Source of the DNA: Escherichia coli
GTDB taxonomy: Bacteria > Pseudomonadota > Gammaproteobacteria > Enterobacterales > Enterobacteriaceae
NCBI RefSeq assembly: GCF_022846255.1
Contig: NZ_AP025682.1
Length of the DNA stretch: 64,000 nt
Reading direction: 5' to 3' (one strand)
Shown here: one piece after another, positions 22,560 through 43,698 of the stretch
Layout: each line of letters begins with the position of its first letter
Position numbering within the stretch: position 1 is the stretch's first letter
Notes under the pieces: model-generated
Database searches by the model: none
Told to the model about the DNA's origin: nothing
Seen by the model: only the letters and a program-made list of their open reading frames with translations
Translations under genes and position numbers: made by a program

Positions 22560-22927
22560 CGTAAAATATCCTCTATACTGGTAAGTCCTTCATTATTTAG
22601 CCAGATCATGGCGTCATCCGGCAACTTGCTGTCTGGTTTGGCGTTTTTGAGAGAGGAACTCAGTCGCTTAATCCACATTGTCACCTCAGTAATGCGCCTG
22701 TCTTTGCCTTCCAGCTCAACACGCAGCTTCCCTACTGTTAGCGCAATATCCTCGTTCTCCTGGTCGCGGCGTTTGATGTATTGCTGGTTTCTTTCCCGTT
22801 CATCCAGCAGTTCCAGCACAATCGATGGTGTTATCAATTTATGGAAAAGGTCTGCGTCAAATCCCCAGTCGTCATGCATTGCCTGCTCTGCCGCTTCACG
22901 CAGTGCCTGAGAGTTAATTTCGCTCAC
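22556..22927 (-). CDS. Ead/Ea22-like protein
   Basis: 123 aa with N-terminus MSEINSQALREAAEQAMHDDWGFDADLFH typical of Ea22-like proteins. Confidence 0.6.
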   Translation of the reverse strand: MSEINSQALREAAEQAMHDDWGFDADLFHKLITPSIVLELLDERERNQQYIKRRDQENEDIALTVGKLRVELEGKDRRITEVTMWIKRLSSSLKNAKPDSKLPDDAMIWLNNEGLTSIEDILR

Positions 22928-23145
22928 TTCGAACCTCTCTGTTTACTGATAAGCTCCAGATCTTCCTGGCAACTTGCACAAGTCCGACAACCCTGAACGG
23001 CCAGGCGTCTTCGCTCATCTATGGGATCGCCACACTCACAACAATGAGTGGCAGATACAGCCTGGTGGTTCAGACGACGCATTTTTATTGCTGTATTGCG
23101 CTGTAATTCTTCGATTTCTGATGCTGAATCAATGATGTCTGCCAT
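22924..23145 (-). CDS. TraR/DksA-family C4 zinc-finger protein
   Basis: 73 aa with CxxC...CxxC motif. Confidence 0.7.
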   Translation of the reverse strand: MADIIDSASEIEELQRNTAIKMRRLNHQAVSATHCCECGDPIDERRRLAVQGCRTCASCQEDLELISKQRGSK

Positions 23146-23243
23146 CTTCCATTAATCCCTGAATTGTTGGTTAATACGCTTGAGGGTGAATGCGAACAAT
23201 AAAAAAGGAGCCTGTAGCTCCCTGATGATTTTGCTTTTCATGT

Positions 23244-23459
23244 TCACCGTTCCTTAAAGACGCCATTTAACATGCCGATCGCCAGGCTTAAATGAGTCGG
23301 TGTGAATCCCATCAGCGTTACCGTTTCGCGGTGCTTCTTCAGTACGCTACGGCAAATGTCATCGACGTTTTTATCCGGAAACTGCTGTCTGGCATTTTTG
23401 ATTTCAGAATTAGCCTGACGGGCAATGCTGCGAAGGGCGTTTTCTTGCTGAGGTGTCAT
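23244..23459 (-). CDS. lambda orf61-like hypothetical protein
   Basis: 71 aa from MTPQQENALRS; position after exo as in lambda. Confidence 0.5.
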   Translation of the reverse strand: MTPQQENALRSIARQANSEIKNARQQFPDKNVDDICRSVLKKHRETVTLMGFTPTHLSLAIGMLNGVFKER

Positions 23460-23535
23460 TGAACAAGTCCCATGTCGGCAAGCATAAGCACACAGAATTT
23501 GAAGCCCGCTGCCAGAAAAATGCATTCAGTGGTTG

Positions 23536-23727
23536 TCATACCTGGTCTCTCTCATCTGCTTCTGCTTTCGCCACCATCATTTCCAGCTTTTGTGAAAGGG
23601 ATGTGGCTAACGTATGAAATTCTTCGTCTGTTTCTACTGGTATTGGCACAAACCTGACTCCAATTTGAGCAAGGCTATGTGCCATCTCAATACTCGTTCT
23701 TAACTTAACAGGAGATGCTTTGTGCAT
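23536..23727 (-). CDS. lambda orf63-like hypothetical protein
   Basis: 63 aa, close to lambda orf63 as recalled. Confidence 0.55.
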   Translation of the reverse strand: MHKASPVKLRTSIEMAHSLAQIGVRFVPIPVETDEEFHTLATSLSQKLEMMVAKAEADERDQV

Positions 23728-23888
23728 ATCGCCTCCCGTTTATTATTTATCTCCTCAGCCAGCCGCTGGGCTTTCAGTGGATTTTGGATAACAGAAAGGC
23801 CGGGAAATACCCAGCCTCGCTTTGTAACGGAGTAGACGAAAGTGATCGCACCTACCCGGATATTATCGTGAGGATGCGTCATCGCCAT
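23700..23888 (-). CDS. lambda orf60a-like hypothetical protein
   Basis: 62 aa; overlaps exo stop as in lambda. Confidence 0.5.
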
Positions 23889-24559
23889 TGCTCCCCAAAT
23901 ACAAAACCAATTTCAGCCAGTGCCTCGTCCATTTTTTCGATGAACTCCGGCACCATCTCGTCAAAACTCGCCATGTACTTTTCATCCTGCTCAATCACGA
24001 CATAATGCAGGCCTTCACGCTTCATCCGCGGGTCATAGTTAGCAAAGTACCAGGCATCTTTTCGTGTCACCCACATGCTGTACTGCACCTGGGCCATGTA
24101 AGCCGACTTTATGGCCTCGAAACCACCGAGCCGGAATTTCATGAAATCCCGGGAGGTAAACGGGCATTTCAGTTCAAGGCCGTTGCCGTCACTGCATAAA
24201 CCATCGGGAGAGCAGGCGGTGCGCATACTTTCGTCGCGATAGATGATCGGGGATTCATTAACATTCACGCCGGAAGTGAACTCAAAGAGGGCTCTGGCGT
24301 CGTTCTCGTACTGTTTTCCCCAGGCCAGCGCCTTAGCGTTAACTTCCGGAGCCACACCGGTGCAAACCTCGGCAAGCAGGGTGTGGAAGTAGGACATTTT
24401 CATGTCAGGCCATTTCTTTCCGGAGCGGGGTTTTGCTATCACATTGTGAACTTCTGAAGCGGTGATGATGCCGAGCCGTAATTTGTGCCATGCATCATCC
24501 CCCTGTTCGACAGCTCTCACGTCGATCCCGGTACGCTGCAGGATAATGTCCGGTGTCAT
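23879..24559 (-). CDS. exo: lambda exonuclease (Red alpha)
   Basis: 226 aa, near-identical to lambda Exo as recalled. Confidence 0.97.
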
Positions 24560-25341
24560 GCTGCCACCTTCTGCTCAGTGGCTTTCTGTTTCAGGAATCC
24601 AAGAGCTTTCACTGCTTCGGCCTGTGTCAGTTCTGACGATGCGCGAATGTCGCGGCGAAATATCTGGGAACAGAGCGGCAATAAGTCGTCATCCCATGTT
24701 TTATCCAGGGCAATCAGCAGAGTGTTAATCTCCTGCATGGTTTCATCGTTAACCGGAGTGATGTCGCGTTCCGGCTGACGTTCTGCAGTGTATGCGGTAT
24801 TTTCGACAATGCGCTCGGCTTCATCCTTGTCATAGATACCAGCAAATCCGAAGGCCAGACGGGCACACTGAATCATGGCTTTATGCCGTAACATCCGTTT
24901 GGGATGCGACTGCCACGGTCCGGTGATTTCTCTGCCTTCGCGGGTTTTGAATGGTTCGCGGCGGCATTCATCCATCCACTCGGTAACGCAGATAGGATGA
25001 TTGCGGTCTTTGCGGTAAATCCGGCATGTGCAGGATTCGTTGTCCTGTTCAAAGTCCATGCCGTCAAACTGCTGGTTTTCGTTGATGATGCGGGACCAGC
25101 CATCAACGCCCACCACCGGAACGATGCCGTTCTGCTTATCAGGGAAGGCGTAAATTTCTTTCGTCCACGGATTAAGGCCGTATTGGTTGGCGACGATCAG
25201 CAATGCGATGAACTGCGCATCGCTGGCATCGCCTTTAAATGCTGTCTGGCGAAGAGTGGTGATCAGTTCCTGTGGGTCGACAGAATCCATGCCGACACGT
25301 TCAGCCAGCTTCCCAGCCAGCGTTGCGAGTGCTGTACTCAT
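24556..25341 (-). CDS. bet: recombinase Bet (Red beta)
   Basis: 261 aa, near-identical to lambda Bet as recalled. Confidence 0.97.
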
Positions 25342-25346
25342 CCGTT

Positions 25347-25643
25347 TTATACCTCTAAATCAATATCAACCTGGTGGTGAGCAATGGTTTCAACCATGTA
25401 CCGGATGTGTTCTGCCATGCGCTCCTGAAACTCAACATCGTCATCAAACGCACGGGTAATGGCTTTTTTGCTGGCCCCGTGACGTTGCAAATGATCGATG
25501 CAGAGCGATTCAAACAAATGCTGGGGCAGACCCTTTTCCAGGTCGTCTGCCAGTTCTGCCTCTTTCTCTTCACAGGCGATCTGCTGGTAGTGACGCGCCC
25601 AGCTCTGAGCCTCAAGACGATCCTGAATGTAATAAGCGTTCAT
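25347..25643 (-). CDS. gam: RecBCD inhibitor Gam, short form only
   Basis: 98 aa from [21 protein letters not shown], preceded by AGGAG; the long-form N-terminal extension is not in frame. Confidence 0.9.
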
Positions 25644-25718
25644 GGCTGAACTCCTGAAAATGGCTGTGAAAATATCGCCCGCGAAATGCCAGGCTGATTA
25701 GGAAAACAGGAAAGGGGA

Positions 25719-26009
25719 TTAGTGATTCAGGCCGTTACCGCGTCCGTCGAGAAAAACTTCCACGAGCAAATCACGGGTATAAGTGCGCTCGATGCCGCGA
25801 TGCAGATATAGCCGTCCGCGTAAATTAGCTGATGCAGTCCAGGTACCATCTTTGTGTTTGACCAGCATTCCTGGCATGACCGCACCGCGATTAACGGTCT
25901 GCGTTCCGTAATGTTGATGAACCATAAAAACTCCTGCCCGTAAGCTGGGCTGCTGAACATATAGAGACTTCTGCGCGTATTCAGGCGGTGGATGGCCGCC
26001 GGTTGTCAT
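25719..26009 (-). CDS. hypothetical protein at the start of the early-left operon
   Basis: 96-aa ORF (68 aa from the internal Met with AGGAG RBS); no Arg-rich N-like motif. Confidence 0.35.
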
Positions 26010-26209
26010 AACTAAGCCGCCTCGTTGAAGCGACTAAGGTATGAAATGTTGAGTTGATTTCAGCTGGTCACACCGACGTTCACGCGTCCGTTTCACCCCT
26101 CGCACTCCCCGAAGCCTGCTGAAATTCAAACTGCGGATCTAAGCGGTCATCGCAACGGTGAATCAGGTGGTTGCCGTATCGTTGTGTTGTTGCGATGAAC
26201 TTATTTAAA

Positions 26210-26280
26210 ACTATAGTTGTTTTATCGTCAACAACAAAAGTTGTTTTATTGGTTGTTTTAGATATAACTGGTTGTATTTA
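26210..26280. promoter_or_regulatory. putative OL operator/promoter cluster
   Basis: repeated GTTGTTTTA / GGTTGT half-sites and the dyad AACAAC-AAAA-GTTGTT, sharing the half-site of the cI-cro palindrome. Confidence 0.4.
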
Positions 26281-26520
26281 GGATGGATTTATTTTGTGAC
26301 TTGAATCGCATAGCGATAACTGAAGCGAGGTTATGGTGGTTTTTTTAACGGTGTGTGTGATGAGGGGAGGGCAAAAGAAAACCCGGCACGGTGACCGGGA
26401 TTCTTACGCCGTTAGGTAAAGATATTATTGCGGTGGCTTAATATTACTACCTAGAGCAAAGATAGGAATTAGTTCTTTACTGAATGAGCACAATGCCCAG
26501 TTGATAATTTTTAATTGGTA

Positions 26521-27210
26521 CTACCCATGCTTCCTATATGTCTGCGGCATGCTCCCAATAACCTTACCGAAGATGAACACCCGGTTCATCTCGTCTTTCT
26601 CGATCGGGTCCCACGGTGAGTAGCTTTTGTTATCAGAGATGACCAGCAGCTTATCCTTCATCATTTGCAGGCGCTTTACATGGGCTGTGTCGTCGTACAG
26701 AAACGCATAGATACCATCACCGTCGAAAGATTTAACTGTGATATCAACGAACAGCAGATCACCTGGTTCGATCGTTCCTGACATGCTGTCACCACGCACG
26801 TTAATGATGCGGATATTTTCCGCCTTCCTACCATCGAACATGTGACGAGCATCGTCAAACGAGTACTCAACCGAGCGTAGAACTTCTACAAACTCACGGT
26901 TGATGACTCCCGGCCCAGCACTGACTTCTATATCAAGAACGTCAATCTTAAAGTATTTGGAATGGCTGACAGTTGATAGTATTGGTTGCACTGTACTGTC
27001 TGACATATTTCCAACGCCAGAAGATAACCATTCTGCGCGCACACCCAAAGCGTTCGCGATCTCCACGATTTTAGTTGTTTGATTAGCTTTCCCTGTTTCG
27101 ATTTTCTGAATAGCAGCCTGGCTAACCCCGACCAAATCCCCAAGCGCCTTTTGTGTAAGGCCTCGCGCTAATCTGGCTTCTTTAAGTCTTTCTGAGAGTG
27201 TTGTTTTCAT
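26521..27210 (-). CDS. CI-like prophage repressor (HTH_XRE plus S24 LexA-like peptidase)
   Basis: 229 aa from MKTTLSERLKEARL; C-terminal domain with GDSM motif; divergent from cro-like gene. Confidence 0.85.
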   Translation of the reverse strand: MKTTLSERLKEARLARGLTQKALGDLVGVSQAAIQKIETGKANQTTKIVEIANALGVRAEWLSSGVGNMSDSTVQPILSTVSHSKYFKIDVLDIEVSAGPGVINREFVEVLRSVEYSFDDARHMFDGRKAENIRIINVRGDSMSGTIEPGDLLFVDITVKSFDGDGIYAFLYDDTAHVKRLQMMKDKLLVISDNKSYSPWDPIEKDEMNRVFIFGKVIGSMPQTYRKHG

Positions 27211-27251
27211 AGTCCAAATGTACAACCAAGGTTTTATTCCATCAAACGAAA

Positions 27252-27277
27252 ATGGTTGTTGACTAAAAAACAACCAT
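27252..27277. promoter_or_regulatory. OR-like operator palindrome overlapping putative PR -35 TTGACT
   Basis: perfect inverted repeat ATGGTTGTT-N8-AACAACCAT between the divergent cI-like and cro-like genes. Confidence 0.5.
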
Positions 27278-27315
27278 AGTTTTAATCTTGATTCAAATTA
27301 ACCACGGAGGTTGTT

Positions 27316-27546
27316 ATGAACCCAGCTATCAAAACAGCGATCAATATCGTTGGTTCACAAAAGAAACTGGGCGCTGCTTGCGAAGTTTCACAGCAGGCCG
27401 TCTATAAGTGGCTTCACAACAAAGCAAAGGTATCCCCTGAACATGTCGGCAGCATTGTTACGGCTACTGGTGGAGTAGTGAAGGCATACCAGATTCGCCC
27501 GGATCTTCCGAAGTTGTTTCCACACACCGAAAAGAACGCAGCTTAA
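27316..27546 (+). CDS. Cro-like repressor
   Basis: 76 aa with HTH (QKKLGAACEVSQQAVYKW); GGAGG RBS. Confidence 0.7.
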   Translation: MNPAIKTAINIVGSQKKLGAACEVSQQAVYKWLHNKAKVSPEHVGSIVTATGGVVKAYQIRPDLPKLFPHTEKNAA

Positions 27547-27615
27547 ATTTCCATTTCACGCTCTTTAACAATAAGCAATCAACTTAACAGTCAATTCAAA
27601 CTAAAGGAGTCAATT

Positions 27616-28155
27616 ATGCAACCACTTACATACCAACAGACTAGCGGATTTAGCCCGACTGCGGTGATAAATCGTTCTCAAACAAAACAGGCGCCAGGCC
27701 ACGAAAAAATCCGTGATGCCGTTCGCGCCTGGTCGGCTGCAGATAATCAGGATGTTGTTGCCGCACTCATTGTGAATGAGTATCGGGAGCAGGGCGGCGG
27801 CACCATCGATTTCCCTGATGATGTCAGCCGTGCACGCCAGAAGCTGTTCCGCTTCCTCGATAACAAATTCGATTCTGAAAAATACCGAAATAACGTGCGT
27901 GAACTGACCCCGGCAATTCTGGCGGTACTACCGCTGGAATATCGCGGCCACCTGGTTGAGCAGGATAGCTTCATGGCTCGGTTGGCTGAAATGGATAAGG
28001 AACTCAGTGAGGCAAAGCAGGCGGTCATTCTCAACGCACCACGCCACCAGAAACTGAAGGAAATGAGTGAAGGTATTGTGTCGATGTTTCGTGTGGACCC
28101 GGATCTGGCTGGTCCATTAATGGCGATGGTTACCACCATGCTGGGGGCAATATGA
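27616..28155 (+). CDS. YdaT-like (CII-position) regulatory protein
   Basis: 179 aa; assignment mainly from the racR-ydaS-ydaT-like gene order. Confidence 0.4.
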   Translation: MQPLTYQQTSGFSPTAVINRSQTKQAPGHEKIRDAVRAWSAADNQDVVAALIVNEYREQGGGTIDFPDDVSRARQKLFRFLDNKFDSEKYRNNVRELTPAILAVLPLEYRGHLVEQDSFMARLAEMDKELSEAKQAVILNAPRHQKLKEMSEGIVSMFRVDPDLAGPLMAMVTTMLGAI

Positions 28156-28241
28156 CAGGTTCAGAAATGGCGAAAGCCGGTCTGCGGGAACAGAGCCGAC
28201 TTTCAGGTGCAAATCGTAACGCACTCATTGCGGAAGGAATT

Positions 28242-29171
28242 ATGGCAAACACTGCTGAGATATTCAATTTTCCAGTGCCGGATGAGGCACAAAAGGAGCC
28301 GCGCGTGGCAGATCTCGATGATGGTTATACGCGCATTGCAAATGAGTTGCTGGAAGCTGTGATGCTGGCCGGATTAACACAGCACCAGCTTCTGGTCTTC
28401 CTGGCTGTCATGCGCAAAACATATGGCTTTAATAAAAAACTGGATTGGGTGAGCAACGAGCAACTGTCCGAATTGACCGGGATATTGCCGCACAAGTGTT
28501 CTGCTGCAAAAAGTGTTCTGGTAAAGCGTGGGATTTTGATTCAGAGCGGGCGGAATATCGGTATTAATAATGTGGTCAGTGAATGGGCAACATTACCCGA
28601 ATCAGGTAAGAAAAATAAAGTTTACCTGAAAGAGGTAAATTTACCTGAATCAGGTAAGAAAAGTTTACCCAAATCAGGTAAAGGCGTTTACCCGAATCAG
28701 GTAAACACAAAAGACAAACTAACAAAAGACAATATAAAACCTTTTTCGTCAGAGAATTCTGGCGAATCCTCTGACCAACCAGAAAACGATCTTCCTGTGG
28801 TGAAACCAGATGCTGCAATTCAGAGCGGCAGCAAGTGGGGGACAGCAGAAGACCTGACCGCCGCAGAGTGGATGTTTGACATGGTGAAGACCATCGCGCC
28901 ATCAGCCAGAAAACCGAATTTTGCAGGGTGGGCTAACGATATCCGCCTGATGCGTGAACGTGACGGACGTAACCACCGCGACATGTGCGTGCTGTTCCGC
29001 TGGGCATGCCAGGACAACTTCTGGTCCGGTAACGTGCTGAGTCCGGCCAAACTCCGCGACAAGTGGACCCAGCTCGAAATCAACCGAAACAAGCAACAGG
29101 CTGGCGTGACAGCCGGCAAACCAAAACTCGACCTGACGAACACTGACTGGATTTACGGGGTGGATTTATGA
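28242..29171 (+). CDS. O: replication initiator O
   Basis: lambda O-like N-terminus (VADLDDGY) and C-terminus (DLTNTDWIYGVDL); iterons inside the gene. Confidence 0.9.
   Translation: MANTAEIFNFPVPDEAQKEPRVADLDDGYTRIANELLEAVMLAGLTQHQLLVFLAVMRKTYGFNKKLDWVSNEQLSELTGILPHKCSAAKSVLVKRGILIQSGRNIGINNVVSEWATLPESGKKNKVYLKEVNLPESGKKSLPKSGKGVYPNQVNTKDKLTKDNIKPFSSENSGESSDQPENDLPVVKPDAAIQSGSKWGTAEDLTAAEWMFDMVKTIAPSARKPNFAGWANDIRLMRERDGRNHRDMCVLFRWACQDNFWSGNVLSPAKLRDKWTQLEINRNKQQAGVTAGKPKLDLTNTDWIYGVDL
28592..28745. repeat. replication origin: five 19-bp iterons plus AT-rich tract
   Basis: TTTACC-N7-GGTAAA units at 28592, 28621, 28640, 28664 and 28687, followed by an A-rich tract. Confidence 0.7.
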
Positions 29172-29869
29172 AAAACATCGCCGCACAGATGGTTAACTTT
29201 GACCGTGAGCAGATGCGCCGGATCGCCAACAATATGCCGGAACAGTACGACGAAAAGCCGCACGTACAGCAGGTAGCGCAGATCATCAATGGTGTGTTCA
29301 GCCAGTTACTGGCAACTTTCCCTGCGAGCCTGGCTAACCGGGATCAGAACGAACTGAACGAAATCCGCCGCCAGTGGGTTCTGGCTTTCCGGGAAAACGG
29401 GATCACCACAATGGAACAGGTTAACGCAGGAATGCGCGTAGCCCGTCGGCAGAATCGACCATTCCTGCCATCACCCGGGCAGTTTGTTGCCTGGTGCCGG
29501 GAAGAAACATCCGTTACCGCCGGGCTGCCAAACGCCAGCGAGCTGGTTGATATGGTTTACGAGTATTGCCGGAAGCGTGGCCTGTATCCGGACGCAGAGT
29601 CTTATCCATGGAAATCAAACGCGCACTACTGGCTGGTTACCAACCTGTACCAGAACATGCGGGCCAATGCGCTGACTGACGCGGAATTACGGCGTAAAGC
29701 TGCCGATGAGCTGACCTGTATGACCGCGCGAATTAACCGTGGTGAGGCGATACCTGAACCAGTAAAACAACTTCCTGTCATGGGCGGTAGACCTCTAAAT
29801 CGTGCACAGGCTCTGGCGAAGATCGCAGAAATCAAAGCTAAGTTTGGGCTGAAAGGAGCAAGGGTATGA
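29168..29869 (+). CDS. P: replication protein P (DnaB loader)
   Basis: 233 aa, near-identical to lambda P as recalled. Confidence 0.95.
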   Translation: MKNIAAQMVNFDREQMRRIANNMPEQYDEKPHVQQVAQIINGVFSQLLATFPASLANRDQNELNEIRRQWVLAFRENGITTMEQVNAGMRVARRQNRPFLPSPGQFVAWCREETSVTAGLPNASELVDMVYEYCRKRGLYPDAESYPWKSNAHYWLVTNLYQNMRANALTDAELRRKAADELTCMTARINRGEAIPEPVKQLPVMGGRPLNRAQALAKIAEIKAKFGLKGARV

Positions 29870-30168
29870 CGGGCAAAGAGGCAATTATTCATTACCTGGG
29901 GACTCATAAGAACTTCTGTGCGCAGGACGTTGCCGTGGTAACAGGCGCAACCGTAACCAGCATAAATCAGGCTGCGGCTAAAATGGCACGGGCAGGTCTT
30001 CTGGTTATCGAAGGTAAGGTCTGGCGAACGGTGTATTACCGGTTTGCTACCAGGGAAGAACGGGAAGGAAAGATGAGCACGAACCTGATTTTTAAGGAGT
30101 GTCGCCAGAGTGCCGCGATGAAACGGGTATTGAGGGTATATAAAAGAACATCAATGGGTACACAATGA
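29866..30168 (+). CDS. ren: Ren
   Basis: 100 aa, close to lambda Ren as recalled. Confidence 0.85.
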   Translation: MTGKEAIIHYLGTHKNFCAQDVAVVTGATVTSINQAAAKMARAGLLVIEGKVWRTVYYRFATREEREGKMSTNLIFKECRQSAAMKRVLRVYKRTSMGTQ

Positions 30169-30235
30169 TGAAACAGATGAGTTGAGTTCAAACTGTAGTA
30201 CAATTCTCTCCAGTTTGAACAGGAAAGAATATGCT

Positions 30236-30568
30236 ATGAATCCTTATATTTATCTTGGTGGTGCAATACTTGCAGAGGTCATTGGTACAACCTTAATGAA
30301 GTTTTCAGAAGGTTTTACACGGTTATGGCCATCTGTTGGTACAATTATTTGTTATTGTGCATCATTCTGGTTATTAGCTCAGACGCTGGCTTATATTCCT
30401 ACAGGGATTGCTTATGCTATCTGGTCAGGAGTCGGTATTGTCCTGATTAGCTTACTATCATGGGGATTTTTCGGCCAACGGCTGGACCTGCCAGCTATTA
30501 TAGGCATGATGTTGATTTGTGCCGGTGTGTTGGTTATTAATTTATTTTCACGAAGCACACCACATTAA
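30236..30568 (+). CDS. emrE: SMR-family multidrug efflux protein EmrE
   Basis: 110 aa from MNPYIYLGGAILAEVIGTTLMK, 4 TM; matches K-12 DLP12 EmrE as recalled. Confidence 0.9.
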   Translation: MNPYIYLGGAILAEVIGTTLMKFSEGFTRLWPSVGTIICYCASFWLLAQTLAYIPTGIAYAIWSGVGIVLISLLSWGFFGQRLDLPAIIGMMLICAGVLVINLFSRSTPH

Positions 30569-30626
30569 AAATAATTTCTTTTGAATCGAGTGAAATAGGT
30601 TAGCCCGCATAAGTGCGGGCTGCTTT

Positions 30627-31670
30627 TTACAGGTCAGCGTTTGTTTTTTGTTGTTGGGTAGCGGTTTTTATGGGGGTTCCCAGGTTTTTAGTAAACCACT
30701 CAACAACTCTGTTTATAATAATTGGCTGATACCATGTATTATCTCCATGCTCAGCCCCTTCTACCAGAACGTACTCAGCGTTATCGCCGTTCTTCTTCAA
30801 CATCCTGAATAGTTTGGCGCTTTGCTCAGGTGAAACCAGAGTGTCTTTGCTACCATGCATAATAAGAAATGGGGGGTTTACTCCTTTCATATGTCCGATT
30901 GGACTGGCGTTTAGCGCTTTTTCTTTTGACGCTGTTATGGGGGCTCCCGCAAAACTTCTGAATGCAGGGCCATTGATCATTAAGGCTTCGGTTACGGCAG
31001 GAGATCGATGAACCTCCTGCACAGATTCAGGGAACCCCTCGCCAATATTCAACAAGTCAGAAATCCCATAAAGTGTGGCAACTGCCTGAACATCTGCTGA
31101 TTGCTGAAGAAAGTCACCTTTATCAAAGGTTTTGTCACCATTTGTAGTTCCCATCATCTGGGCAAGCCATCCACCGGCAGAGTCACCCAGAACTCCGATT
31201 CTTTGAGGATCAATCCCATAATCGCTGGCATGTTCTCTCAAGTAACGTATTGCAGCTTTCCCATCCTCAACTGGTGCTGGAAATGTATCAGGAATTGTTC
31301 TGTATTCTACAGCGGCCACAACAAAACCAGCTTCAGCCAGAGCCATTCTCATTTCAATAAATTTGTCATGTTCAGAAGACATGAATCCGCCGCCGGGATA
31401 ATAAATAATGGCTGGTTTTAAATCATTTGTTCGTGGGACAAGAACTGACATGTGAAGCTGTCTGACAGAACGAGTTCCTTTTATCTGGGAATAAACAACA
31501 TCACCAATGAGATCGACCTGGTTTCTGGTCGGTGAAACACTAATGATATCTGCACCCGGGGTGTAACCAGGAAGATTAGTCTGGACAGGTGTTGCACAAC
31601 TCCCGACCGACATGGCCATTGACATACCATACAATAGTGTTGCAGATGATAATATCTTGTTAATTTTCAT
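30627..31670 (-). CDS. secreted esterase/lipase lipoprotein, HSL-type alpha/beta hydrolase
   Basis: 347 aa; signal peptide with lipobox SVGSC; oxyanion motif YYPGGGF; nucleophile elbow GDSAGG; C-terminal HGSKD and AEHGDN. Confidence 0.75.
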   Translation of the reverse strand: MKINKILSSATLLYGMSMAMSVGSCATPVQTNLPGYTPGADIISVSPTRNQVDLIGDVVYSQIKGTRSVRQLHMSVLVPRTNDLKPAIIYYPGGGFMSSEHDKFIEMRMALAEAGFVVAAVEYRTIPDTFPAPVEDGKAAIRYLREHASDYGIDPQRIGVLGDSAGGWLAQMMGTTNGDKTFDKGDFLQQSADVQAVATLYGISDLLNIGEGFPESVQEVHRSPAVTEALMINGPAFRSFAGAPITASKEKALNASPIGHMKGVNPPFLIMHGSKDTLVSPEQSAKLFRMLKKNGDNAEYVLVEGAEHGDNTWYQPIIINRVVEWFTKNLGTPIKTATQQQKTNADL

Positions 31671-32117
31671 GTTTTACATGCCTTGACTTATCGGATGAAA
31701 TTCTCTTACTGAATTTAACGGCAGTTTAATAGCCGTACAACTCGTGGTAGCTAGGGAAATATCCCAGTCGTGGTTAAGGTTGTACTTGACGGCTATTATT
31801 TCAACAATGCTTAAAGTGAGAGCTTAAGGTTATGCGTATGTTTTACAGTCCGAGTAGATTCTGACCAATAGCTTCTTTGTATGATTCTGTCAGAAATAAA
31901 TCTTGGCTTGCATGAAGTTTGAGACCTTATCTTGTTTGATTATGAATAATCAATTCGCCATAATTGTATCACCGGAGCCTGAACAACTTCGGTGACTTCT
32001 GCGCTAAACGGGGACGTTTATGCGCACATACAATCCAAACTCTCTTCTCCCTTCACAGATGCAGAAATGCACCTGCGATTTTTTGCATCCTGCGTTTGAC
32101 CTCTGCGGAGGTGAAGC

Positions 32118-32573
32118 GTGAACCTCCCACAAGACGGCATCAAATTACATCGCGGCAACTTCACCGCTATCGGCCAGCAGATCCAGCCTTATCTGGAGGA
32201 AGGCAAATGCTTTCGCATGGTGCTTAAACCGTGGCGGGAGAGACGCAGTCTTTCCCAGAATGCACTTAGCCACATGTGGTACAGCGAAATCAGTGAATAC
32301 CTCATCAGCAGGGGTAAAACGTTCGCCACTCCAGATTGGGTAAAAGATGCTCTCAAACACACTTATCTCGGTTATGAAACCAAAGAACTGGTTGATGTCG
32401 TATCTGGTGAGATCACCACTATTCAGTCATTACGCCATACCTCCGATCTTGATACCGGAGAGATGTATGTCTTCCTGAGTAAGGTTGAATCTTGGGCGAT
32501 GAATATTGGCTGCCACCTGACTATTCCGCAGAGCTGCGAGTATCAGCTGCTGCGTGATAAGCAGGAGGCGTAA
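32118..32573 (+). CDS. ybcN: YbcN-like protein (DLP12 nin region)
   Basis: 151 aa; matches DLP12 YbcN as recalled. Confidence 0.75.
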
Positions 32574-32743
32574 TGGCTACACCGCTTATTCGTGTCATGA
32601 ACGGACACATCTACAGAGTACCAAATCGTCGTAAGCGTAAGCCTGAGCTGAAACCATCCGAAATACCAACACTGCTCGGATATACCGCCAGCCTGGTTGA
32701 TAAAAAATGGTTGCGACTGGCAGCAAGGAGGAATCATGGCTGA
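32573..32743 (+). CDS. ninE: NinE-family protein
   Basis: 56-aa basic protein, start overlapping ybcN stop (TAATG); nin-region position. Confidence 0.55.
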   Translation: MATPLIRVMNGHIYRVPNRRKRKPELKPSEIPTLLGYTASLVDKKWLRLAARRNHG

Positions 32744-34076: not shown

Positions 34077-35174
34077 TTAGAACTGGTAAACCAGTCCTAC
34101 GGCAACGATGTCGTCAGTGCTTACACCAAGTGCTTTAGTGAAGTCGTTTTTGTCAAGCAGGTTGATCTTGTAATCAACGAAAGTAGACATGTTTTTGTTG
34201 AAGTAATAAGTTGCACCTACATCAACATATTTGACTAAGTCCTGATCGCCCCATACTCCAAGATCCTTACCTTTAGATTGCAGGTAAGCAACGGACGGAC
34301 GCAGACCGAAATCGAACTGATATTGTGCAACAGCTTCGAAGTTTTGAGCTTTATTAGCAACGAAGTGATCAGCAAATACAGTCATATTCTGGGTTTCAGA
34401 ATAGGTAGTGGCCAGGTAAATGTTGTTAGCGTCATATTTCAGACCTGCGGCCCAAATTTCTGCATTTTTACCGGAAGCAAATACTTCAGGAAGAACTTTG
34501 CCTGCATTGACTTGAGTGTCGGTACGATCAGATTTCGCATAAGTCGCACCAATGCCGAATCCTTCGTATTCATAGGTAGCAGAGAAACCGAATCCATCAC
34601 CGTTACCTTCGGTGTAGTTATCGAAATCGCTACGATCGTTTTTACCTTGGTACTGAGCAGCAAAGTTCAGACCATCAACCAGACCAAAGAAGTCGTTGTT
34701 ACGGTAAGTTGCAACACCAGTTGCACGTTGAGTCATGAACACGTCGGTTTGAGTCCAAGTGTCACCACCGAATTCTGGCAGGACGTCAGTCCACGCACCG
34801 ATGTCGTATGCTACACCGTAGTTACGACCGTAATCGATGGAACCGTAGTCACCGAATTTCAGGCCTGCAAATGCAAGACGGGTTTTGTCTTTGGCGGAAC
34901 CTTGAGATTCAGCGCGGTTGCCTTTGAATTCATATTCCCACTGACCGAAACCAGTCAGTTGATCGTTGATTTGGGTTTCACCTTTGAAGCCCAGACGAAC
35001 ATAAGTAGTATCACCATCATCTGCATCGTTAGAGGAAAAGTAGTGCTTGGCATTAACTTTCCCGTACAGATCCAGCTTGTTACTGTCTTTATTATAAATT
35101 TCAGCTGCCTGAGCAGACATCGCCATCAGTACTGATGCAGCTACAGCAGAAATTGCCACTGTTAATTTTTTCAT
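34077..35174 (-). CDS. nmpC: outer-membrane general porin (NmpC/OmpC family), apparently intact
   Basis: 365 aa from [11 protein letters not shown]; signal peptide; C-terminal F; long AT-rich upstream region 35175-35716. Confidence 0.9.
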
Positions 35175-35761
35175 CGTGAGCCCTTTTTTTGAACTATTAT
35201 TAAAAAATGATGTCACTGCGCGATAAATATTCATCTAATCAATATGATTATTTCAAGATGTAAGTTTTAGTTTCTCATTTAATTTGTGAAGTAGATCTCT
35301 ATTTTTATCTGAACTTTTTCTATCGAAACCTATTTATGGCTCTTATTTGAACAAAAATAAACCTATTAGCTAATTTATATTAATGGCTGTTATTTATGGT
35401 GGTTCTATAATTCGGAAGTTTAATTTAAATCAACTAAAAATAACGTCGGAAATTATTTATTGGTTATTTGTTGAGGTTTTCTAATGTATTTGTGGTGGTG
35501 TTTTGAACACTCGGTAGCATTCTCATAAATATCATTCAGTGGTTTACGTACGTAAAAAATTGGTTATGCTGTTAAGAGTGGTTACTTCGTCACACAGCTT
35601 AAACCCGCCGTCGAGCTGGTTTTTCCATTTTTTGAGTCTCGATATTAGCTGATAACTCAATACCTGAGTTATTCACTGACTCCGAGTCTGTTACGTTTCT
35701 GCTTTTTTGCGATACGTTGTATTCCCTCAATTTACACCCGCTTTGTCTGCGAGGTGGGGTT

Positions 35762-37914: not shown

Positions 37915-37963
37915 ACCTGATCTTCTGTCTTACGGGTCCTTTCCGGCGATCCGGCAGGCTACG

Positions 37964-37975
37964 GGGCGGAAGGCG
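37964..37975. other. cosN cohesive-end site (variant 12-mer GGGCGGAAGGCG)
   Basis: flanks ACG...CGCGGGTTTTCGCTATTTATGAAAATTTTCCGG match lambda cos as recalled; lambda 12-mer is GGGCGGCGACCT. Confidence 0.5.
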
Positions 37976-38152
37976 CGCGGGTTTTCGCTATTTATGAAAA
38001 TTTTCCGGTTTAAGGCGTTTCCGTTCTTCTTTGCCGTAACTTAATGTTTTTATTTAAAACACCCCCTGAAAAGAAAGGAAACGACAGGTGCTGAAAACGG
38101 GCTTTTTGGCCTCTGTCGTTTCCTTTCTCTGTTTTTGTCCGTGGAATGAACA

Positions 38153-38671
38153 ATGGAAGTCAACAAAAAGCAGCTGGCTGACATTTTCGGTGCGAGTATC
38201 CGTACCATTCAGAACTGGCAGGAACAGGGAATGCCCGTTCTGCGAGGCGGTGGCAAGGGTAATGAGGTGCTTTATGACTCTGCCGCCGTCATAAAATGGT
38301 ATGCCGAAAGGGATGCTGAAATTGAGAACGAAAAGCTGCGCCGGGAGGTTGAAGAACTGCGGCAGGCCAGCGAGACAGATCTCCAGCCAGGACTATTGAG
38401 TACGAACGCCATCGACTTACGCGTGCGCAGGCCGACGCACAGGAGCTGAAAAATGCCAGAGACTCCGCTGAAGTGGTGGAAACTGCATTCTGTACTTTCG
38501 TGCTGTCGCGGATCGCAGGTGAAATTGCCAGTATTCTCGACGGGATCCCCCTGTCGGTGCAGCGGCGTTTTCCGGAACTGGAAAACCGACATGTTGATTT
38601 CCTGAAACGGGATATCATCAAAGCCATGAACAAAGCAGCCGCGCTGGATGAACTGATACCGGGGTTGCTGA

Positions 38672-38697
<26 letters not shown>
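38153..38697 (+). pseudogene. Nu1: terminase small subunit Nu1 with a 1-nt frameshift
   Basis: ORFs 38153-38449 and 38473-38697 together match lambda Nu1; total 545 nt versus 546 expected; missing A near 38391. Confidence 0.75.
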
Positions 38698-42378
<3,681 letters not shown>

Positions 42379-42398
<20 letters not shown>

Positions 42399-43698
42399 TC
42401 TCCCGCATATTGCCAGCATGGCCTTTAATGAGCCGCTGATGCTTGAACCCGCCTATGCGCGGGTTTTCTTTTGTGCGCTTGCAGGCCAGCTTGGGATCAG
42501 CCGCCTGACGGATGCGGTGTCCGGCGACAGCCTGACTGCCCAGGAGGCACTCGCGACGCTGGCATTATCCGGTGATGATGGCGGGCCACGACAGGCCCGC
42601 AGTTATCAGGTCATGAACGGCATCGCCGTGCTGCCGGTGTCCGGCACGCTGGTCAGCCGGACGCGGGCGCTGCAGCCGTATTCGGGGATGACCGGTTACA
42701 ACGGCATTATCGCCCGTCTGCAACAGGCTGCCAGCGATCCGATGGTGGACGGCATTCTGCTCGATATGGACACACCGGGCGGGATGGTGGCGGGAGCATT
42801 TGACTGTGCTGACATCATCGCCCGTGTGCGAGACATAAAACCGGTATGGACGCTGGCCAACGACATGAACTGCAGTGCAGGTCAGCTGCTTGCCAGCGCC
42901 GCCTCCCGGCGTCTGGTCACGCAGACCGCCCGGACAGGCTCCATCGGCGTCATGATGGCTCACAGTAATTACGGTGCTGCGCTGGAGAAACAGGGTGTGG
43001 AAATCACGCTGATTTACAGCGGCAGCCATAAGGTGGATGGCAACCCCTACAGCCATCTACCGGATGATGTCCGGGAAACACTGTAGTCCCGGATGGATGC
43101 AACCCGCCGGATGTTTGCACAGAAGGTGTCGGCATATACCGGCCTGTCCGTGCAGGCTGTGCTGGATACCGAGGCTGCAGTGTACAGCGGTCAGGAGGCT
43201 ATTGATGCCGGACTGGCTGATGAACTTGTTAACAGTACCGATGCGATCACCGTCATGCGTGATGCACTGGATACACGTAAATCCCGTCTCTCAGGAGGGC
43301 GAATGACCAAAGAGACTCAATCAACAACTGTTTCAGCCACTGCTTCGCAGGCTGACGTTACTGGCGTGGTGCAAGCGACGGAGGGCGAGAACGCCAGCGC
43401 GGCGCAGCCGGACGTGAACGCGCAGATCACCGCAGCGGTTGCGGCAGAAAACAGCCGCATTATGGGTATCCTCAATTGTGAGGAGGCCCACGGACGTGAA
43501 GAACAGGCACGCGTGTTGGCAGAAACCCCCGGAATGACCGTGGAAACGGCCCGCCGCATTCTGGCCGCAGCACCACAGAGTGCACAGGCGCGCAGTGACA
43601 CTGCGCTGGATCGTCTGATGCAGGGGGCACCGGCACCGCTGGCTGCAGGTAACCCGGCATCTGATGCCGTTAACGATTTGCTGAACACACCAGTGTAA
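42379..43698 (+). pseudogene. C: head protease/scaffold gene C interrupted by an in-frame TAG at 43084-43086
   Basis: GTG start inside B; 440 codons in one frame equal lambda gpC length, but codon 236 is TAG; S49 peptidase domain lies upstream of the stop. Confidence 0.7.
43093..43698 (+). CDS. Nu3: scaffolding protein Nu3
   Basis: 201 aa, same frame as the C 3' part; starts MDATRRMFAQ. Confidence 0.9.
   Translation: MDATRRMFAQKVSAYTGLSVQAVLDTEAAVYSGQEAIDAGLADELVNSTDAITVMRDALDTRKSRLSGGRMTKETQSTTVSATASQADVTGVVQATEGENASAAQPDVNAQITAAVAAENSRIMGILNCEEAHGREEQARVLAETPGMTVETARRILAAAPQSAQARSDTALDRLMQGAPAPLAAGNPASDAVNDLLNTPV

Follow-up and report, generated by a model that had tools for sequence, protein, structure and literature searches.

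Does the lambda-type Nu1 locus of this Escherichia coli prophage still encode the small subunit of the terminase? The locus occupies positions 38153–38697 of the 64-kb stretch of DNA that was analysed as a whole, hereafter the window. It measures 545 nt, against 546 nt for an intact gene, and contains two ORFs in different frames, 38153–38449 (98 aa) and 38473–38697 (74 aa). The former begins MEVNKKQLADIFGASIRTIQNWQEQG and the latter ends LSEYIEQSG. When the window was searched with lambda Nu1 by tblastn, residues 1–82 of the protein were found in one frame at 96% identity and residues 72–181 in another at 93% identity. The ORF list and this search thus confirm the preliminary description, which had recognized the two ORFs as lambda Nu1 read in different frames.

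Where is the missing nucleotide? To answer this, we examined a four-way DNA alignment of window positions 37950–38800 with lambda, a prophage of E. coli MS1657 and the Stx1a phage Stx1_9793. The MS1657 prophage is the closest prophage from a complete genome, 99.2% identical over this interval. There is one gap in 852 columns, at 38390–38392, in agreement with the 1-nt deletion that had been placed near 38391. At this site the window reads CCAGGACT (CCAGG-ACT), both of the closest relatives read CCAGGGACT and lambda reads CCAGGAACT, just as the preliminary description had given it. The identity of the lost base is another matter. It had been given as A, which fits lambda; however, the closest relatives read GGG where lambda reads GGA, so that the base cannot be assigned to A and G is equally likely. 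Compared with those relatives, the base lost may be a G from the GGG run. A compensating second indel, one that would restore the Nu1 frame, is excluded by the single gap in the 852 aligned columns.

The frame of Nu1 is correct through Gly80 and is shifted from codon 81 onward, where 18 out-of-frame residues lead to a stop at 38447–38449. On the combined evidence of the alignment and of tblastn, the earlier statement that no full-length Nu1 can be encoded here is upheld. The positions of this and neighbouring features are collected in table 1.

Table 1. Coordinates, in the window, of the features of the cos–Nu1 region and of genes A and C.
Feature	Position	Strand	Remarks
Cohesive-end variant of cosN, GGGCGGAAGGCG (lambda GGGCGGCGACCT)	37964..37975	+	From the alignment with lambda
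Region upstream of Nu1, which we take to be cosB from established knowledge of lambda	37976..38152	+	Nearly identical to lambda (alignment)
Nu1 N-terminal ORF, 98 aa	38153..38449	+	Residues 1–80 (winged-HTH DNA-binding domain) plus 18 out-of-frame residues
Site of the 1-nt deletion	38390..38392	+	GGA here, GGGA or GGAA in intact relatives; the lone gap column in three alignments
Nu1 C-terminal remnant in the original frame, residues 81–181	38392..38697	+	Frame open from 38353
Terminase large subunit gene A, intact, 641 aa	38672..40597	+	99.7% identical to lambda gpA; start overlaps the Nu1 remnant
Head protease/scaffold gene C, amber-interrupted	42379..43698	+	Nested Nu3 ORF intact
TAG amber codon in C, Q236*	43084..43086	+	Gln in VCSW7; lambda C aligns across the site without gaps

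How much of a Nu1 gene is left? The N-terminal winged-HTH segment homologous to lambda Nu1 residues 1–68 is present, and Pfam PF07471 is recorded on a product identical to the 98-aa ORF. An intact relative matches the solved structures 1J9I (residues 1–68) and 6HN7 (residues 1–98) in the PDB. The position is also that of lambda Nu1: the locus lies directly 3′ of cos, and its 3′ end overlaps the beginning of A. What is absent is an uninterrupted ORF of about 181 codons running from the DNA-binding to the self-assembly and gpA-binding regions. The sole ORF call in the C-terminal remnant is the 74-aa ORF; it begins at a GTG, and no Shine–Dalgarno sequence was found upstream of that codon. Since the deletion splits the locus into 98-aa and 74-aa ORFs in different frames, the locus is a pseudogene rather than a functional member of PF07471. 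The likeness to lambda otherwise extends from residues 1–80 (about 96% identical) through the remnant of residues 81–181 (about 93%) to a collinear series of genes from A to tfa. The departures from lambda are two: the Nu1 frame is broken after Gly80, so that there is no 181-aa protein, and the cohesive end is of another type.

Five of the 12 positions of the cohesive end differ from lambda, despite a gpA nearly identical to lambda's. The 76-nt cos stretch recurs unchanged in two phage records, PhiR46_1 (listed host ECOR13) and YDC107_1, as well as in 48 records of complete genomes, stand-alone replicons of about 46 kb among them. The variant cohesive end thus appears to be a natural minority cos allele.

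Is Nu1 the only damaged gene of the late operon? The preliminary description had held that every other late gene looked intact. We compared all lambda proteins with the window by tblastn and screened each homologous segment for internal stops. Genes A, W, B, D, E, FI, FII, Z, U, V, G, T, H, M, L, K, I, J, lom, stf and tfa all run to full length, in the same order as in lambda. The exception is gene C: an in-frame amber codon interrupts it, the local protein sequence being RETL*SRMD in the window and RETLQSRMD in VCSW7, so that the former statement was mistaken. The Nu3 ORF (43093–43698, 201 aa) is untouched by this amber. The same TAG occurs in the one other genome carrying the Nu1 deletion whose sequence reaches C (loci L006 and L007), where the gene calls are of 235 and 201 aa. 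The prophage lineage that includes the window therefore bears two independent late-gene lesions, one in Nu1 and one in C. The full length of the remaining late genes, from A to tfa, points to a decay that is recent or partial.

The closest complete-genome relative, E. coli VCSW7, has a separate feature. At 20436–32682 of its locus (L004), an insert of about 12 kb splits the prophage capsid gene E. Its products are a tyrosine integrase, a primase, an Icd-like protein, SSB, major capsid and decoration proteins of its own, and a protein of abortive infection. The insert has the look of a satellite-like element lodged in the capsid gene of the prophage.

What kind of element surrounds the locus? 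Chromosomal genes extend to dsdC (18131–19072) and are followed by a lambdoid prophage that begins with torI (19260–19460). Its gene set includes exo, bet, gam, a Kil homologue, CI-, Cro- and CII-like regulators, O, P, ren, NinB, RusA, a Q-like antiterminator, an endolysin and Rz. Together with the regulators, the replication genes and the lysis genes, the order Nu1-A-W-B-C-D-E-FI-FII-Z-U-V-G-T-H-M-L-K-I-J-lom-stf-tfa identifies it as lambdoid, and inactivating lesions in genes essential for the particle, the Nu1 frameshift and the C amber, place it among defective prophages. Two further candidates for such lesions were considered and rejected. An internal stop assigned to gam lies upstream of an intact 98-aa Gam ORF (25347–25643). 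The 64-kb window holds no lambda-type integrase and no tRNA gene; the position of torI beside dsdC resembles the KplE1/argW arrangement of K-12, in which int stands at the far end, probably beyond position 64000 in the present case, and we do not count the missing integrase as a sign of decay.

The prophage carries several cargo genes. In its left arm, between an xis-like gene and ea22-like genes, lies a gene of the PACE family of multidrug and biocide efflux proteins (above the NCBIfam cut-off) with a divergently transcribed LysR regulator beside it (both within 20267–21713); the best match of the regulator, AceR, falls below the cut-off. An EmrE-family SMR efflux gene and an esterase gene (30182–31670) are situated between ren and ninB, and an OmpC-family porin gene (34077–35234) between Q and the lysis genes. 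The SMR efflux and porin genes resemble emrE and nmpC in the K-12 cryptic prophage DLP12. A 479-aa ORF (62434–63873) beyond tfa matches nothing in PHROG or NCBIfam. Only a few complete genomes contain near-identical DNA; in one of them, TB06052, the ORF is annotated as a hypothetical protein. For the query covering the chromosomal flank, dsdA-dsdX-dsdC (15000–19100), identity to the best matches among complete genomes reaches only about 96%, which suggests a divergent lineage or a variable locus.

If the deletion is genuine, is it found elsewhere? An exact-protein look-up in a large collection of assemblies (NCBI, ENA and Logan) returned the 98-aa product on ten contigs. The carriers are NCBI GCA_005387665.1, the ENA metagenome ERZ929318 (L008) and the Logan assemblies DRR102846, ERR8433107, DRR540076, SRR11871737, SRR23278681, DRR322657, SRR16525437 and SRR22784467. 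Two of the loci, L006 and L007, are 100% identical and were counted as one genome, leaving about nine datasets besides the window. In an alignment of 15 sequences the gap falls in the identical column in 10/10 carriers and in 0/4 intact references. The carriers comprise several haplotypes, diverging from the window by as much as about 3% in their DNA, and both types of cosN are represented among them. Among deposited proteins, the 98-aa product is BDH32610.1 (TRECRb50_14260) and GDA26550.1, the 74-aa product is BDH32611.1 and the C fragment is BDH32615.1. The spacing of the three BDH accessions agrees with the gene order of the window.

The allele is rare, but it is not absent. The exact 98-aa protein is recorded on 8 contigs, as compared with at least 1000 for one intact allele. 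Exact-pattern scans for the deletion were negative in the representative genomes of GTDB, the viral contigs of IMG/VR and the metagenome contigs of JGI. BLAST of 5,426 complete E. coli genomes was likewise negative: a 72-nt query had no perfect full-length match and a 36-nt query that seeds only on the deletion allele had zero matches. Because the carriers lie on several sequence backgrounds, the deletion may either have arisen once and spread by recombination or have arisen repeatedly at the GGG run.

Several carriers have decayed further. Three contain an extra 1-nt deletion downstream, at 38547 in L009 and L012 and at 38671 in L010, as is expected where the Nu1 reading frame is no longer constrained. 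In the L008 contig, Nu1 at about 38614 is joined to stf at about 59204 and the intervening head-tail region is gone; this contig, which shares the Nu1 frameshift, is a derivative in which decay has gone further.

Could the deletion nevertheless be an error of sequencing or assembly, Nu1 being intact in the real genome? The preliminary description had left this open. In the closest relatives a short run of G occupies the site, and the allele was missing from the complete genomes and from the GTDB, IMG/VR and JGI collections, both of which would suit an error. However, the deletion recurs on several haplotypes in about nine further datasets, which come from separate projects (DRR, ERR, SRR and ERZ), and a one-off assembly error is ruled out by the finding of one deletion in independent projects and on different backgrounds. 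Moreover, a GGG stretch is no typical hotspot of error, the chromosomal ORFs of the window (roughly 19 kb) and its other late genes show no evident frameshift, and the C amber, a lesion of the substitution type, is inherited together with the deletion in a second genome (L006/L007). We regard an artefact as extremely unlikely. If the deletion is genuine, might recoding repair it? Both frames are open over 38353–38449, and a programmed −1 ribosomal frameshift or transcriptional slippage in that interval would give a near-normal protein. But the interval contains neither an X XXY YYZ heptamer nor a homopolymer of five or more, the extra deletions of L009, L012 and L010 show that the downstream frame is not conserved among carriers, and the intact relatives, which form the overwhelming majority, need no such device. 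The probability of recoding is negligible.

There remains the fragment itself. It keeps the whole of the solved DNA-binding domain, its allele persists on several backgrounds, and Nu1 homologues are retained in cryptic prophages, those annotated nohA and nohD being among the matches. It might function alone, for example as a regulator or as a cosB decoy against superinfecting lambda-type phages. Against this, the allele is far outnumbered by its intact counterpart, and a repressed lysogen, on established lambda biology, should not transcribe its late operon. The C amber and the larger deletion of L008 also point to plain decay. The apparent conservation of the fragment does not bear on the matter: the carriers were retrieved by exact protein identity, which biases dN/dS and makes amino-acid conservation uninformative as to selection. 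A function of the fragment is improbable. Its most specific form, a domesticated anti-phage decoy that would bind cosB when lambda-type phages enter the cell and so poison the packaging of their DNA, is very improbable; were it true, selection rather than drift would explain why the same deletion occurs on several haplotypes. We conclude, with high confidence, that the deletion is a real and heritable loss-of-function frameshift in the Nu1 gene of a decaying lambda-like prophage. It is a case of ordinary prophage decay, a well-known kind of feature.

What should follow from a loss-of-function frameshift at this point? Lambda Nu1 consists of an N-terminal cosB-binding domain, a region of self-association and a C-terminal gpA-binding region, and both Nu1 and C are essential in lambda. 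Loss of one base in codon 80/81 would leave a 98-aa product that keeps the winged-HTH cosB-binding domain and, judged by what is known of the domains of Nu1, would be without the self-assembly region and the C-terminal gpA-binding region. With these two regions missing, the product could not tether gpA to cos, and assembly of a holoterminase at cos from this gene would be impossible. The early stop, 220 nt upstream of the start of A at 38672, may in addition lower the translation of gpA through loss of coupling. The amber in C would independently disable the maturation of heads. Given both lesions, the prophage alone should yield no filled heads and no packaged infectious particles; as far as its genes can be read, it should be defective for particle production on its own.

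Is Nu1 commonly lost? A second null allele, Q93amber, arises by CAG to TAG at codon 93 and gives a 92-aa product (P0003), for example in E. coli KTE108; it is represented by loci L016–L018. Its site (within 1501–1779 of L016 and of L018) corresponds to window positions of about 38429–38431, 38 nt downstream of the deletion. Like the deletion allele, it leaves an N-terminal fragment, of a similar kind, together with the separately called C-terminal ORF of 74 aa, but it is an independent null and results from a substitution rather than from a 1-nt deletion. It is far commoner, being recorded on 182 contigs and in 315 index blocks, as compared with 8–10 contigs for the deletion allele. The separately called 74-aa C-terminal ORF is itself recorded on 293 contigs. 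Nu1 null alleles are thus common.

Does the loss of Nu1 necessarily confine the prophage? In prophage Sp4 of the O157:H7 Sakai strain, nu1 is disrupted by an IS and yet the DNA is packaged (Asadulghani et al. 2009, PMC2669165). Sp14 has a nearly identical cos, and its terminase most likely packages Sp4, as was inferred from the experiments in that study (PMC2669165). Like Sp4, the present prophage is lambdoid, has an inactive terminase small-subunit gene and further defects of head formation, and belongs to the class described as the ‘defective prophage pool’ (PMC2669165). It differs in the nature of its lesions, a 1-nt deletion and the C amber in place of an IS insertion, and in being known from sequence alone. 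On the precedent of Sp4 (PMC2669165), a nu1 defect would block cos recognition and packaging, as the preliminary description predicted, only if no helper prophage is present, which here means a co-resident lambdoid prophage that supplies terminase. The window represents 64 kb of the genome, and rescue by, or recombination with, such a prophage is possible.

What, then, does the lesion signify? Beyond annotation the frameshift in Nu1 matters little. For annotation, the two ORFs are a single Nu1 pseudogene, C is a pseudogene as well, and the prophage is defective, not intact. A late operon that looks intact needs an explicit check for internal stops. The defective status of the prophage alters the predictions that can be made of its inducibility and of the horizontal transfer of its PACE efflux, EmrE-like efflux and porin cargo; a defective terminase gene alone does not exclude the mobilization of the prophage by helper prophages.
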